DNA from: a virus
Lineage: Duplodnaviria; Heunggongvirae; Uroviricota; Caudoviricetes
DNA: 34,568 nucleotides
Virus record (IMG/VR): IMGVR_UViG_2740892214_000019
Span: 1-34,568 of that record
Direction: 5' to 3' (one strand)
The notes beneath the pieces are model-generated. The model was not told the origin of the DNA, made no database searches, and worked only from the letters and a program-made list of their open reading frames with translations. Below are positions 554-5,994 of this stretch, piece by piece. Each line of letters begins with the position of its first letter. Within the stretch, counting starts at the first letter, position 1. Position numbers and translations under genes: made by a program.

Positions 554-1549
554 GTGACCGTGAGAGCACTACTGACCCCTGAAATTGCCCCGCGTATGGG
601 GATCGTATTGTTCAGGCCAGGTTCAGAGCTGATGCCCCTGTTTATGCAGGGGCGTGTCCTGCTGGAGCCTGAGCCGGAGCGTTATTCATCTTTCGCCAGT
701 GGTGCCGTTCCGGCGGCATCACAACCGCTGGCGGATGATCCTGCTGTTCGGGCCGTGTTCCGCAATGAGGCAGTGATCCGTCGTGCTGGTGGAGTGGAAT
801 GTCTTGAAAGCTGGTTACTTCGTGAAAAAGGCTGCCAGTGGCCTCATTCCGACTGGCACAGCGAGAATATGACCACAATGCGACACGCGCCGGGCGCAAT
901 CCGTCTGTGCTGGCACTGCGATAACCAGCTGCGCGATCAGTTCACGGAACGGCTGGAATCAATGGCAACGGATAACTGTGCCCGCTGGATGTTGTCTGTT
1001 GTGCGTCGGGATCTCGGTTTTGATGACAGTCACGTTGTGACAATGCCGGAACTATGCTGGTGGCTGGTTCGTAATGACCTGGCGGATGCCTTACCGGAAA
1101 GTGCAGCCCGTAAGGCACTGAGATTACCGAAGCCTGTTGTGCCGTCTGTCACCCGGGAAAGTGACCTTGTTCCTTCGGTTCCTGCCACCAGCATCATCCA
1201 GGATAAAGCGAAAAAGGTGCTGGCGCTGAAAGTGGATCCGGAGTCGCCGGAGTCTTTTATGTTACGCCCCAAACGTCGCCGCTGGGTTAACGAAAAGTAC
1301 ACGCGCTGGGTTAAGACGCAGCCGTGCGCATGTTGTGGAAAGTCTGCTGATGATCCTCACCACCTGATAGGTCACGGTCAGGGCGGAATGGGGACAAAAA
1401 CGCATGACCTCTTTGTGTTGCCTTTGTGCAGAAAGCATCACGACGAGCTGCATGCAGATACCGTGGCATTTGAAGAGAAGTATGGCTCCCAACTGGAGCT
1501 GATATTTCGTTTTATCGATCGTGCGCTGGCGATTGGTGTGTTGGCCTGA
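554..1549 (+). CDS. Phage protein with C-terminal Cys/His-rich motif (DUF968/NinG-like nin-region protein)
   Basis: 331-aa ORF; C-terminus has the motif CACCG...HH...H...C..HH..LH. Track start at 554 is a GTG, so the true start is uncertain. Position upstream of Q matches a lambdoid nin region. Confidence 0.4.
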   Translation: MTVRALLTPEIAPRMGIVLFRPGSELMPLFMQGRVLLEPEPERYSSFASGAVPAASQPLADDPAVRAVFRNEAVIRRAGGVECLESWLLREKGCQWPHSDWHSENMTTMRHAPGAIRLCWHCDNQLRDQFTERLESMATDNCARWMLSVVRRDLGFDDSHVVTMPELCWWLVRNDLADALPESAARKALRLPKPVVPSVTRESDLVPSVPATSIIQDKAKKVLALKVDPESPESFMLRPKRRRWVNEKYTRWVKTQPCACCGKSADDPHHLIGHGQGGMGTKTHDLFVLPLCRKHHDELHADTVAFEEKYGSQLELIFRFIDRALAIGVLA

Positions 1550-1566
1550 TTTGGTGGAGAAAGTTG

Positions 1567-1932
1567 ATGCGTGATATTCAGATGGTTCTGGAGCGTTGGG
1601 GGGCATGGGCGGCGAGTGATAGTTCAGGCGTTGATTATTCACCTATAGCCGCTGGGTTTAAGGGACTTCTTCCCTATACAAGCAAGAAACGCTTGGCTTG
1701 TTCGGATAGTGATGCCTTAATTATTGAAGGTTGTCTTGCTCGTCTAAAGCAAAAAAAGCCAGATGAGCACTCGCTGCTTGTGGCACATTATTTATACAGA
1801 ATATCCAAGCGTAAGATTGCAAAGGTGCGTGGAAAGGATGAAAAATTGGTACGCATAGAAATACAACTAGCCGAAGGATTTATTGATGGTTGCCTTTCAA
1901 TGTTGGATGTTAACCTTGAAATGGACGCTTAG
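1567..1932 (+). CDS. Late-gene antiterminator Q (Q82/QuuD family)
   Basis: N-terminus MRDIQMVLERWGAWAA and overall length closely resemble E. coli QuuD and phage 82 Q as I recall them. First ATG is at 1567; the track's 1564 is a TTG. Confidence 0.8.
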   Translation: MRDIQMVLERWGAWAASDSSGVDYSPIAAGFKGLLPYTSKKRLACSDSDALIIEGCLARLKQKKPDEHSLLVAHYLYRISKRKIAKVRGKDEKLVRIEIQLAEGFIDGCLSMLDVNLEMDA

Positions 1933-1938
1933 GGTTGC

Positions 1939-1968
1939 ACAGGTTGGCCCCATATGAGGCCAACCTGT
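1939..1968. terminator. Perfect 11-bp inverted repeat (ACAGGTTGGCC, 8-nt loop, GGCCAACCTGT), no U-tract
   Basis: Read directly; lies between the Q stop and the 3' end of the minus-strand cassette. Likely bidirectional attenuator or RNA 3'-end stabiliser. Confidence 0.35.
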
Positions 1969-2417
1969 CACAAGTGGGGGAAGATTTTTCGTAACACTAA
2001 CCAACACCTTCCGAAGGTATATAGCGAAATTATAAGGGAGGATAAGCCTAACAGTATGAATAGGAAATCAATAGGTTTGCCCGCAACAATAACATCATCA
2101 GGTAGAAACATCGCTATCAATGGAAATATACATGCGACGATGAGAGTTAACCCTGTTGAAAGTAATCGATTTACCAGAGTTGGTAACACGTTGTTTTGCT
2201 TAAGGGCATTAATTGCTCCTTCCTTATCGCTGTTTGCACTACTAAATATAGATATTGCAGCCAGAACAAAACCAAACAGGATGCCTGATATAGTCGAGAG
2301 CACCCCCGCTGTTGTGAGTACGTCAGCATGCTTCATCGGTTTAAACAGTTTTGTCGCTGCATAGGTCAACAGAATCCAGAGGACGCATTTCCAGAGAAAA
2401 GTGGCTAATTCTCTCAT
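1968..2417 (-). CDS. Small integral membrane protein, about four predicted TM helices (second gene of moron cassette)
   Basis: Four hydrophobic stretches of about 20 aa by eye. Start preferred at the internal Met at 2417 (MRELAT...) because GGAGGA sits about 6 nt upstream; the track start is 2429. AT-rich by eye. Confidence 0.6.
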   Translation of the reverse strand: MRELATFLWKCVLWILLTYAATKLFKPMKHADVLTTAGVLSTISGILFGFVLAAISIFSSANSDKEGAINALKQNNVLPTLVNRLLSTGLTLIVACIFPLIAMFLPDDVIVAGKPIDFLFILLGLSSLIISLYTFGRCWLVLRKIFPHL

Positions 2418-2438
2418 TGTGTCCTCCATGCTTGGTTA

Positions 2439-3380
2439 TTAGTCTCTGCTAGCGAGCTCATACTGTGCAAGATAGTTCGCGTTATCAATTTTAGCAGATA
2501 TCATCGCCGTTCTGATATCAGAATCGGATGGATAACCGCTTTTGACAATGATTGTCTTTGTACTGACCAATACTTGGTCAAGTAGACTTTTGGGCGTTCT
2601 ATTGGATGGCTCTGTTACATCAATTTTTTTAATTTTTAGACCTCCAGAACCTTTTGGAAAAAGTTCAAGTAGTTCCTTAATAGCATCGGTGACAGAAGTT
2701 TTTAGATAGTTAAACCCTTGTTTTTTCGGGCGAATCCGACCTCGCATATTTAATCTTAGATGCGACCCGCCCATACCAACAACCATGTCAATAATTTCAT
2801 TAGCTAAAGGGTTTTTAATCTTATAATTAGCTTTGTTAAAGTTTCTTGGAGCAGCAACTATAAGATCGAAACTACGTAGGATATTTCCGTCCTCAAGCAG
2901 TTCCTTCATGCTCTCTTGTTTCCAAATGGCTTCAAAAGTGACGCTTTTTAAATCAGTTTTGTTATACAAAATGAATGCCAGATCATTTACTTTGGGCCCT
3001 ATATGGTTGAGGGTCATAGCTAATAAGTCCGTTTCGTAGTAATAGATAAAATATGTTCTTTCAACTACAGAATCTTTATCATTTAAAGGAATTGTTCTCT
3101 CACTACCTGTAGCATCCTCGATGAACGGTAGTAGGCATTCCCTTCTCCACGATACGTAACCAAAGTAACATTGCAGTGTGGTATCTTTTTGAAGAATAAC
3201 TAACTTTAACCCTCGATTTGGGGTGTCTGTTGTGTAAGTTATTGGAAAAGTTTCAGTATCTGCTGTGGTCATTTGCTCAAAGGCTAGTTTTGCAGCAGAT
3301 GTGCCATCTTTTTTGCTTCCATTACCAGTGAAAAAACCAACTCTCACTCGCCTAGTTTTATTCTTATTTTCTGTACTCAT
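2439..3380 (-). CDS. Hypothetical soluble Lys/Arg-rich protein, 313 aa (first gene of moron cassette)
   Basis: Long ORF with AT-rich codon usage unlike the flanking phage genes; stop is 9 nt upstream of the membrane-protein ORF, so operon-like. No family recognised. Confidence 0.65.
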   Translation of the reverse strand: MSTENKNKTRRVRVGFFTGNGSKKDGTSAAKLAFEQMTTADTETFPITYTTDTPNRGLKLVILQKDTTLQCYFGYVSWRRECLLPFIEDATGSERTIPLNDKDSVVERTYFIYYYETDLLAMTLNHIGPKVNDLAFILYNKTDLKSVTFEAIWKQESMKELLEDGNILRSFDLIVAAPRNFNKANYKIKNPLANEIIDMVVGMGGSHLRLNMRGRIRPKKQGFNYLKTSVTDAIKELLELFPKGSGGLKIKKIDVTEPSNRTPKSLLDQVLVSTKTIIVKSGYPSDSDIRTAMISAKIDNANYLAQYELASRD

Positions 3381-3395
3381 TATCGATCCGAAATA

Positions 3396-3425
3396 ATTTT
3401 AGCAACCGTGTGAAAAATACAACAA
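3396..3425 (-). promoter_or_regulatory. Putative sigma70 promoter for the cassette
   Basis: On the minus strand TTGTTG/TTGTAT then TAAAAT upstream of the 3380 start. Weak, by-eye match only. Confidence 0.2.
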
Positions 3426-3502
3426 AAAAAAGAGGAAATCATTAGCGCGGTCCGCAAAAAACATTGTAATCTGTTAAGAGTGGTTACTTCGCCACACAGC
3501 TT

Positions 3503-3535
3503 AAACCCGCCGTCGAGCGGGTTTTGTCGTTTCTG
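3503..3535 (+). terminator. tR'-like intrinsic terminator of the short late-promoter leader (6S-type) RNA
   Basis: AAACCCGC, 6-nt loop, GCGGGTTT followed by TGTCGTTTCTG, about 140 nt upstream of the holin gene; the position matches lambdoid PR'-qut-tR'. Confidence 0.5.
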
Positions 3536-3676
3536 TGGCTGGGGATTCGTTGGTCCTGGCCTATTCCGCAGTTCTCCATCGGTTCGGCTTCTTTGATGTT
3601 TCCGCTTCTGATTTGCGGTACATGATGTTCCCTCAATTTGCACCTGCTGTATCAGCGAGGTGAGAGATAACTACAA

Positions 3677-4003
3677 ATGCCTCATAACCCAAATACCTGG
3701 CTGGAGTTGTTCCAGAGCTGGTGGCGTGGAGACACACCGCTGGGCGCAGTGATTATGTCGATCGTTATGGCTGGCTTGCGCATTGCCTATTTTGGCGGTG
3801 GTGGTGGCTGGAAACGAAAAACGCTCGAGATTTTGCTCTGTGGTGCTCTGACGCTGACTTTTGCATCCGCTCTTGAGTATGTCGGATGGCCTAAATCTCT
3901 TTCTGTTGCCATTGGTGGCGGTGTTGGGCTGATTGGTGTCGATGCAATTCGTGGGGCTGCAATGCGAGTAATCGGTAACAAATTTGGTAGCTCGAAGGAG
4001 TAA
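3677..4003 (+). CDS. Holin (putative)
   Basis: 108-aa protein with two to three hydrophobic helices, immediately upstream of the endolysin gene. Confidence 0.6.
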   Translation: MPHNPNTWLELFQSWWRGDTPLGAVIMSIVMAGLRIAYFGGGGGWKRKTLEILLCGALTLTFASALEYVGWPKSLSVAIGGGVGLIGVDAIRGAAMRVIGNKFGSSKE

Positions 4004-4006
4004 TTT

Positions 4007-4483
4007 ATGCAGGCACTAAATTCCCAGCGTAAAGCTTTCTTGGATATGGTTGCATGGTCAGAAGGAACGGATAACGGGCGACAACCGACACGTAACCACG
4101 GTTATGATGTCATTGTCGGTGGTGAACTGTTTACTGATTACTCCGATCATCCTCGCAAACTTGTCACGCTAAATCCGAAACTCAAATCAACAGCAGCCGG
4201 ACGTTACCAGCTTCTTTCCCGTTGGTGGGATGCCTACCGCAAGCAGCTAGGGCTGAAAGACTTCTCTCCCAGAAGCCAGGACTCCGTGGCATTACAGCAG
4301 ATTAAAGAGCGTGGCGCTTTACCGATGATTGATCGCGGTGATATCCGTCAGGCAATCGACCGTTGCAGCAATATCTGGGCTTCACTGCCGGGCGCTGGTT
4401 ATGGTCAGTATGAACATAAAATCGGTGACCTGATTGCCAGGTTTAAAGAGGCTGGTGGGGTGGTAAATGAAGTTGAGCTATAA
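4007..4483 (+). CDS. R: Endolysin, lambda R-type lytic transglycosylase
   Basis: Near-collinear similarity to lambda R as I recall it (NSQRKAFLDMLAWSEGTDNGRQ...YDVIVGGELFTDYSDHPRKLV...). Confidence 0.9.
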   Translation: MQALNSQRKAFLDMVAWSEGTDNGRQPTRNHGYDVIVGGELFTDYSDHPRKLVTLNPKLKSTAAGRYQLLSRWWDAYRKQLGLKDFSPRSQDSVALQQIKERGALPMIDRGDIRQAIDRCSNIWASLPGAGYGQYEHKIGDLIARFKEAGGVVNEVEL

Positions 4484-5016: not shown

Positions 5017-5124
5017 GGTTATATAGCTAGATCGGAATTGGCGATTCATATATCGGAAATAGTTGGTTAAGAATTTTCTGGAATGATTGTATGCTTTTAC
5101 AACCTATATCGAAGTTCATGTTGG

Positions 5125-5994
5125 ATGAATTTTATGCAAAACGTACAGCCGCTATCTCTGGTAACTACTTTAGTAATTTTGAGGTCTAATGGAGAGTCAA
5201 AGTCGTTAGGTACTGGGTTCTTTTATCAACATAGCAATGGTTTCATTTTCCTTGCAACTAACTATCATGTAATAACTGGAATCAGCCCATCCGAAAGGGG
5301 TGTAAAGCCATTTATAGGCGATAGTATTGATATTCAGCTGAGAGATAAAACCGGAAAACTATTCAAACATACGATGCCTCTGTTTAAAGATGGTTCACCG
5401 CTGTGGTTGGAGCACCCCACAGATAAAGAGGCAGACATTATCTTGATGCCTTTGCCTCAAGAGTTGTTTGTAAACACAGGAGTAAAAGTAGTCTCAAAAA
5501 CAACGACACTGCCTAATGTCCAGATAAACCCCTCATCTCCTGTTGTAATGATTGGATATCCTCATGGTTATCATGACACGACTCACTACCTTCCAATATG
5601 GAAAACAGGAAGCTTAGCGAGTGAGCCAGATATCGATTTCGATGGGAAGAAATTAATAGTTGTCGATATTTCTGCTTTCCCTGGAATGTCAGGCTCTCCG
5701 GCATTCTATGTCACGCACAGTGGTTATCTTACAAAAGAAGGGAATATGATCATGGATATGGGAATGAAAATTCATTTCCTTGGCGTTTATGCAAGTATGC
5801 AAATGCTAAACAGTGATCTTTTCTTAGAACAAGTCGTTAGTGCTGCAGAATACAAAGTGTCGCATAGTGAATCTTTGCAACTAGGGCATGTCTGGAAAGC
5901 TGAGTTACTTGAAGAGATAGCTGCGACATCTAGTCCGATTGCAACCACACCATCTCAATTTCAAAGTAATAGCAAATTCTTATTTAAGTACTGA
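5125..5994 (+). CDS. Standalone trypsin-like (chymotrypsin-fold) serine protease, no signal peptide
   Basis: His motif LATNYHV, candidate Asp in KEADIIL, Ser motif GMSGSP, in H-D-S order. AT-rich by eye. Start chosen at the ATG at 5125 rather than the track's 5083. Confidence 0.65.
   Translation: MNFMQNVQPLSLVTTLVILRSNGESKSLGTGFFYQHSNGFIFLATNYHVITGISPSERGVKPFIGDSIDIQLRDKTGKLFKHTMPLFKDGSPLWLEHPTDKEADIILMPLPQELFVNTGVKVVSKTTTLPNVQINPSSPVVMIGYPHGYHDTTHYLPIWKTGSLASEPDIDFDGKKLIVVDISAFPGMSGSPAFYVTHSGYLTKEGNMIMDMGMKIHFLGVYASMQMLNSDLFLEQVVSAAEYKVSHSESLQLGHVWKAELLEEIAATSSPIATTPSQFQSNSKFLFKY

Follow-up and report, generated by a model that had tools for sequence, protein, structure and literature searches.

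A predicted Q-dependent late promoter and terminator unit parted from Q by an antisense cassette in a lambdoid Escherichia coli prophage

The left end of the DNA studied here (the window, i.e., the whole stretch of 34,568 nucleotides that was analysed) is the late-control region of a lambdoid (lambda-like) E. coli prophage, and positions 3442-3535 very probably constitute its Q-dependent late unit, comprising the promoter pR' with a Q-loading site and the terminator tR', parted from the antiterminator gene Q by a 1.5-kb antisense two-gene cassette. The late switch would lie this far from Q because a backwards-facing pair of genes was inserted between them. The late-control mechanism itself is ordinary. 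By homology the unit belongs to a known promoter family, and its location, although found widely, is unusual, which makes the arrangement a variant of a familiar scheme. Indeed, the order Q, cassette, pR' is common and not peculiar to this phage, being found for instance in E. coli K-12.

Genes around Q and the conserved block

In the window, a DUF968 gene (554-1549) precedes Q (1564-1932, + strand, likely ATG at 1567, stop codon 1930-1932), which encodes a 122-aa antiterminator of the Q21/933W family; a profile search matched it to PF06530 (E = 1.4e-51) and to no other Q family. Phage 82 had been named in the earlier note as the comparator for the late promoter; since this Q belongs to PF06530, called the Q21/933W family (10.1101/651190), and not to the 82 family, phages 933W and 21 are the right comparators, judged from the Q family. 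The space between Q and the terminator is, as the same note described it, an antisense cassette, formed by two minus-strand ORFs: gene 1 (2439-3380), encoding a 313-aa divergent DUF6731 relative, and gene 2 (1968-2429, stop at 1968-1970), encoding a 153-aa predicted membrane protein. The 313-aa protein had no match in Pfam or PADLOC, and its homologues at 42-61% identity carry PF20505/DUF6731; the 153-aa protein gave only a sub-threshold DUF4064 match in Pfam and none in PADLOC. The note's end of Q at 1932 is right, and its distance of 1.7 kb slightly overstated: from the Q stop (1932) to the conserved block (3441) there are 1.51 kb, and to the hairpin at 3503 there are 1.57 kb. With the two ORFs filling this gap, pR' does not follow immediately after Q in the window.

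A putative cassette promoter (3396-3425, - strand), read from the sequence and back to back with pR', has a -35 TTGTTG (3425-3420), an 18-bp spacer and a -10 TAAAAT (3401-3396), and scored below the promoter-scan threshold. The non-coding stretch that follows the cassette measures 296 bp (3381-3676) and leads to the first late gene, holin S of the lambda family (3677-4003, + strand, ATG at 3677; PF05106, E = 6.6e-25), after which come the endolysin and spanin genes. The same arrangement is present in 39 complete E. coli genomes at ~98-99% identity. E. coli LD22-1 (CP047876), for one, carries the prophage and matches the window at 98.7% identity over 1400-4100.

The conserved block of ~95 bp (3441-3535) is 86-98% identical among phages with unrelated flanks on both sides. 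Megablast against phage records returned split matches, and in several phages Q adjoins a segment equal to window positions ~3440-3525. The block starts directly after the Q stop codon in the cassette-free Stx2 phage 1720a-02 and in PhiR49_2; it comes after a related antisense pair in cdtI and after an unrelated antisense pair in SfII; in Stx2a_WGPS2 and Stx1_14040, other antisense cassettes lie between Q and the block, and stx follows the block; and in DLP12 (K-12), as well as in 434B, a recombinant with DLP12 DNA, its neighbours are the antisense porin gene nmpC and essD. Moreover, a scan of IMG/VR for exact matches to the 24-nt core of the block gave 119 loci, with a PF06530-type Q upstream in 107, where the gap between Q stop and core was 27-38 bp (14 of 107) or 525-3780 bp (93 of 107). 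A late promoter/terminator unit downstream of the cassette, as the earlier note had predicted, is therefore supported by a block that adjoins Q where there is no cassette and comes after the cassette where there is one, and by its homology to pR' of 933W.

Homology among differently flanked loci runs from a few bases before the -35-like hexamer to the terminator T-tract, past which the sequence switches to a holin leader, a methylase/tRNA/stx leader or others. Since the T-tract is directly followed by this mosaic junction, the lysis operon's untranslated leader (3536-3676, + strand) belongs to the holin module and not to the pR' block. The last ~55-60 nt before the holin start (TTCCCTCAATTTGCACCTGCTGTATCAGCGAGGTGAG; 3620-3676) resemble the essD leader of DLP12 (L127, 5280-5327); a leader common to a lambda-S-type holin and to the unrelated S21-type essD may mark the edge of a module or serve in translational control. 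At the other flank, the last few Q codons vary with the cassette that follows, which places the left recombination junction within the 3' end of Q: the window Q ends in LEMDA* (1900-1932), and cassette-free relatives run on to ...DWLLKK* or similar (loci L001-L123).

Promoter, terminator and candidate Q-binding element

The left edge of the block is marked by a -35-like hexamer, TTAGCG (3442-3447, + strand), that aligns with TTTACG of DLP12 and of the annotated 933W pR'. The -10 region (3465-3472, + strand), assigned by homology, holds TGTAAT (3465-3470), which gives a 17-bp spacer, overlapping TAATCT (3467-3472), which is in the register of TATCAT of 933W and whose spacer would be 19 bp. In a comparison of 70 block variants, the sequence from the A-tract to the start is variable except for TAnnnT, which stays in register in almost all, the expected signature of a -10 element. 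In the 933W record, pR' is given as TTTACG-16 bp-TATCAT, followed by 'qut' and by a 'possible terminator', and these elements align base for base with the block (933W TTTACGATCGTAAAAATCTGCATATCATGATAAGAGTGGTTACATTGCCACGCAGTCGAACCCGCCGATGCGCGGGTTTTTTT, window TTAGCGCGGTCCGCAAAAAACATTGTAATCTGTTAAGAGTGGTTACTTCGCCACACAGCTTAAACCCGCCGTCGAGCGGGTTTT).

The primary PR' start of Sakai Sp5 and Sp15 was mapped by dRNA-seq 258 nt upstream of a Term-seq 3' end (Sy et al., PMC7547250). As the published coordinates refer to an earlier record version, we placed this start by the 258-nt distance: counted back from the end of the second-terminator T-run in NC_002695.2, it is the A of TAAG-A-GTGG, 7 nt after TATCAT, and in Sp5 the A of TAAGAGTGG. 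The same start-region motif is present in the window at 3475-3483. Homology to the 933W pR' and to the Sakai start thus predicts a sigma-70 promoter with its start shortly before the terminator, at 3477-3479 (+ strand; A3479 by homology, A3477 if TGTAAT is used). Promoter prediction, a check suggested in the earlier note, was uninformative in both directions, since a simple sigma-70 scan called no + strand promoter in 1400-4100 and so also missed the pR' candidate (8/12 matches), which was placed by 933W homology instead. Candidate pause elements are imperfect: TAAGAG (-4 to +2) straddles the start, and TACTTC (3485-3490, +7 to +12), which lies in the 5' hairpin and is a possible sigma-dependent pause element, is without the final T; at this position 933W has a better TACATT, and its record places 'qut' at the corresponding +8 to +15.

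The predicted transcript opens with a conserved 5-bp hairpin (GUGGU/GCCAC, 3480-3495, + strand), and a tR'-type intrinsic terminator (3503-3535, + strand) is present between the putative promoter and the first late gene. Its hairpin (3503-3524) was scored by the terminator scan with 8 bp, five of them G-C, a loop of 6 and the tail TGTCGTTTCT, and its T-tract is interrupted (UUUUGUCGUUU) and extends to ~3535. RNA 3479-3535, with both the 5' hairpin and the terminator, folds at -19.6 kcal/mol (z = -2.74 versus shuffles). The terminator stem is kept and the loop varies in at least eight variants. RNAalifold found no compensatory pairs among 19 block variants; these were gathered by the exact 24-nt core and are too closely related, so covariation speaks neither for nor against the hairpins.

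The terminator lies 142 nt before the holin ATG (3677), in line with the ~140 nt stated earlier. That it is the only terminator-like structure between Q and the holin is true of strong structures; a lax scan adds three minimal 5-bp + strand hairpins inside the cassette (2204, 3209 and 3211), and the total of 5 versus 2.4 +/- 1.5 in shuffles means that the count itself is not enriched. A second intrinsic terminator before the holin was not found in the window by the terminator scan. Furthermore, the terminated RNA is predicted to measure ~52-57 nt, like that of phage 21 and not the 194 nt of 6S RNA, which does not fit the 6S-RNA-type unit of the earlier note. Its first ~57 nt hardly differ from one Q class to another, and Rfam at the gathering threshold returned no family over the whole window, so the short pR' RNA does not belong to a curated family.

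A further hairpin lies at 1939-1968, between the Q stop and the stop of the antisense 153-aa ORF, and was thought in the earlier note to be a point where transcription from both sides converges. The structure is real, with an 11-bp stem folding by RNAfold at -25.4 (+ strand) and -27.3 kcal/mol (- strand), but it has no U-tract on either strand and is therefore not a canonical intrinsic terminator. Most other cassettes carry, directly after the Q stop, a G+C hairpin of their own with flanking A and T runs, and these look like bidirectional terminators; the window hairpin is at the same place without such runs, and by analogy a role as a convergent transcription stop is plausible.

The likely Q-binding element (QBE) is the palindrome GCGGTCCGC with an A6 tract (3447-3461, + strand, ~-32 to -18; together GCGGTCCGCAAAAAA), located inside the -35/-10 spacer, as is the QBE of phage 21 (PMC6606751); GCGGTCCGCAAAAA is found once in the window. 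Grouping the Q proteins of the 107 loci at 70% identity yielded four classes: the class including the window and 1720a-02 (42 loci) goes with GCGGTCCGC, the second (37 loci) with GCGTACGC, the third (16 loci) with TTTAC(A/G)ATCGT or TTTACGTACGT, and the fourth (12 loci) with TGTTATAACA. Q class and element correspond one to one in 107/107 loci, over 27 cassette classes and the cassette-free state, an association that may partly reflect linkage because no cassette is common to different Q classes in the 107-locus sample. All elements are 8-10-bp palindromes or near-palindromes at ~-32 to -24, just upstream of the A-tract. The pR' unit is tied to Q by this upstream element that tracks Q class, and a matched Q/QBE pair would call for just this pattern, in which the cassette is replaced repeatedly and both flanks are retained.

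The direct repeat of the 21 type (ATTGAGCA/AATGAGCA) is absent from window positions 3440-3480. The only 14/16 match to the phage 21 QBE in the window (TTTGAGCAAATGACCA, 3266-3281, - strand) was rejected: it is on the wrong strand, within the 313-aa ORF, and is probably due to chance, matches at that stringency being found in 33 of 100 shuffles.

Known late promoters, proposed control and alternatives

The block shares with 933W and Sakai Sp5/Sp15 an aligned -35-like hexamer, A-tract, -10 register, start region (TAAGAGTGGTTAC) and both hairpins, and the Q of 933W is of the same Pfam family, PF06530. In contrast to the window pR', 1.5 kb away from Q, that of 933W overlaps the end of Q, its palindrome is ACGATCGT instead of GCGGTCCGC, and its transcript reaches a second terminator (258 nt) and is processed to the 74-nt StxS. 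Homology stops at the first hairpin, and the downstream 200 nt with StxS-S are missing in the window, as are the features of StxS (RNase E site at +173, 74-nt 3' sRNA at the second terminator); StxS was thus rejected as the identity of the RNA, with only the 5' ~50 nt of StxS-L in common. In 933W, a 7-T tract accompanies the first 'possible terminator', which lies inside the mapped StxS-L (L128, 2227-2249; in Sakai Sp5, L129, ~770-795). Being inside a 258-nt transcript, this terminator is read through at least partly without Q, a point on which PMC7547250 makes no comment.

Phage 21 pR'21 (structures 6P18 and 6JNX) resembles the window in its Q superfamily, in a QBE placed in the spacer and in a ~50-nt terminated transcript before the late genes. 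Its solved QBE is a direct repeat, ATTGAGCA/AATGAGCA, at -27 to -12 (PMC6606751; 10.1101/651190), whereas the window candidate is a palindrome plus A-tract ~5-6 bp further upstream; its SDPE TAAGCT occupies +2 to +7, where TAAGAG of the window straddles the start; its pR' begins 7 bp after the Q stop; and its Q is only distantly related, the window Q showing weak similarity to the solved Q21 (E = 0.03, PDB sequence search). The PR'/qut/6S RNA/tR' system of lambda would be a functional analogue, in that its promoter is constitutive, Q is loaded while polymerase pauses near the promoter, and a short RNA is terminated ahead of the lysis genes; there is no sequence similarity, however, and in lambda Q is PF03589, 6S RNA has 194 nt and PR' adjoins Q. 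Zhang et al. 2018 (PMC6266700) offer no sequence-level account of the pR' type seen in the window.

A known parallel in layout is DLP12 (quuD - nmpC - essD), with Q, an antisense moron (the porin gene), the block and a holin in the same order; its cargo is a porin gene (IS5-disrupted in K-12), unlike the DUF6731 and membrane-protein pair of the window, its palindrome is ACGTACGT, and it has an S21-type holin. Of 5426 complete E. coli genomes, 2658 carry a DLP12-like block. In MG1655 (L130), an intact-looking pR' block (TTTACG-16-TATGCT, start region and hairpin) lies at ~577,150-577,260 between nmpC::IS5 and essD and is unannotated in RefSeq. The lc gene of phage PA-2 presumably occupies the same place as nmpC of DLP12. 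We found no description of a Q/pR' hotspot or of a DLP12 late promoter in the literature searched; such descriptions may exist.

Under the reading that we prefer, sigma-70 RNA polymerase would start constitutively near A3477-A3479, make the ~52-57-nt RNA with its 5' hairpin and halt at the 3503-3535 terminator. On induction, Q (1564-1932) would bind GCGGTCCGC and the A-tract in the promoter spacer and load onto polymerase paused close to the start, and the modified polymerase would then pass the terminator into the holin, endolysin, spanin and virion genes. The cassette would be expressed from the prophage by its own divergent promoter (~3396-3425) and would escape late transcription because it lies upstream of pR', facing only early transcription out of Q. 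In this context, taiEcA of phi80 is an antisense defence gene in a 'noncontiguous operon' whose expression falls when Q-driven transcription opposes it (PMC11364771); it is likewise a defence-type antisense gene embedded near a Q-controlled region, and differs in lying downstream of the late promoter, where it is overrun, whereas the window cassette lies upstream and would be met only by early read-through from Q.

It is conceivable, although we consider it unlikely, that the block is pR' and that 3503-3535 is just a leaky terminator or a small-RNA 3' end, with silencing in the lysogen achieved mainly through the 140-nt leader (Rho-dependent termination, poor translation). The PR' transcript of Sakai Sp5/Sp15, with its 258 nt, does pass the homologous hairpin to a second terminator (PMC7547250), and the interrupted T-tract of the window together with the single intrinsic terminator before its holin point the same way. 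On the other hand, the hairpin and T-run are found in every variant despite loop drift, phage 21 has a single terminator at the same distance, and RNA-seq libraries probably lose RNAs of ~50 nt readily, for which reason the Sakai data are no gauge of how efficient the first hairpin is.

We hold it to be improbable that the block is chiefly a constitutive small-RNA gene acting in trans like StxS, to which the link with Q would be secondary. Consistent with such a gene, pR'-tR' RNAs can be Hfq-dependent sRNAs, StxS among them (PMC7547250), the first ~57 nt are conserved beyond the apparent need of antitermination alone, and the RNA would have two hairpins and a U-tail. However, homology to 933W covers the 5' end of StxS-L, the functional 74-nt StxS-S is absent here, and the upstream element tracks Q class; moreover, small-RNA and Q-dependent roles are not mutually exclusive. 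Finally, it is most improbable that the late promoter still lies by Q (~1933-2000, overlapping the 3' end of the antisense gene), with late transcription running antisense through the cassette and the block serving as a downstream attenuator: the textbook lambdoid layout does have pR' directly after Q (10.1101/651190; phage 21 record), but no + strand promoter-like site was found just after Q by the simple sigma-70 scan (uninformative, as said, in both directions), no sequence after the Q stop is conserved, those of different cassette classes being unrelated while the block is conserved, and both the homologues of the 933W -35/-10 and mapped start and the Q-class-specific element sit in the block and not beside Q.

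Cargo between Q and pR' and its implications

With pR' placed in the block, the Q/pR' junction is a cargo hotspot, occupied by inserts in 93 of the 107 loci that fall into 27 DNA classes and represent 77 unique sequences and about 50 protein families. Their ORFs of at least 80 aa are antisense in 117 cases versus 12 sense. Several inserts are known defence candidates. Examples of the cargo are PDC-S20 (KAP NTPase), PDC-M53A (SfII type), an NsnA/GmrSD_N-like protein with a C5 methyltransferase, an OLD/HEC-04-like ATPase with a methyltransferase, NA37 pairs and an SDH-type protease.

Taken jointly, the following points allow the tentative suggestion that the Q/pR' junction of Q21/933W-family lambdoid phages is a dedicated exchange site for prophage-expressed cargo, an idea that we find possible and somewhat doubtful. 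Recombination between the end of Q and the pR' block may exchange one cassette for another, and Q and the palindromic site would thereby stay matched; cassettes may be almost always antisense, each with its own terminator; and late transcription may never cross them, as they sit upstream of pR'. N-modified early transcription from Q would oppose the cassette, switching defence off at lytic entry. If this is true, a candidate QBE that is palindromic would point to a Q-DNA geometry unlike the direct-repeat mode solved for Q21.

For many E. coli and Shigella prophages, including DLP12 and some Stx1 and Stx2 phages, the default placement of pR' right after Q is hereby corrected; in Stx phages, the distance between Q and stx and its content are used in typing and in explaining toxin yield. 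Two by-products are of more interest: the candidate palindromic QBE, which offers a testable Q-binding element for four Q classes, and the cargo hotspot. The stretch from the Q stop to the pR' block is a compact and easily spotted site that has received at least 27 different cassettes, and it could be mined for prophage-borne defence genes, given PDC-S20, PDC-M53, NsnA/GmrSD-like and OLD-like proteins and many unknowns. The DLP12 block of K-12 is, in addition, a handy model for the promoter and for QuuD.

Some minor observations concern the content of the cassettes. At least six unrelated cassettes (the window; loci L003, L005, L009, L031 and L058) encode a soluble protein of ~270-360 aa and then a multi-pass membrane protein of ~150-195 aa, and among these pairs only the SfII type matches PADLOC (PDC-M53A); BLASTP gave no significant similarity between the window cassette proteins and the PDC-M53-type pair of SfII. 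Sibling prophages that share Q, the cassette and the pR' block with the window (E. coli 1283, CP023371, L132, 2465-3955; L002, 4696-6126) carry a sense hypothetical gene and a DNA methyltransferase gene between terminator and holin, the position of stx in Stx phages, so that cargo lies on both sides of pR'-tR', antisense upstream and sense downstream. Lastly, between the spanin genes and the HNH/terminase region, the window encodes a 303-aa trypsin-like peptidase (5083-5994, + strand; PF13365) that matches the candidate defence family PDC-S45 (E = 5.8e-42); its gene, which occupies the position of bor in lambda, may be a second piece of cargo.
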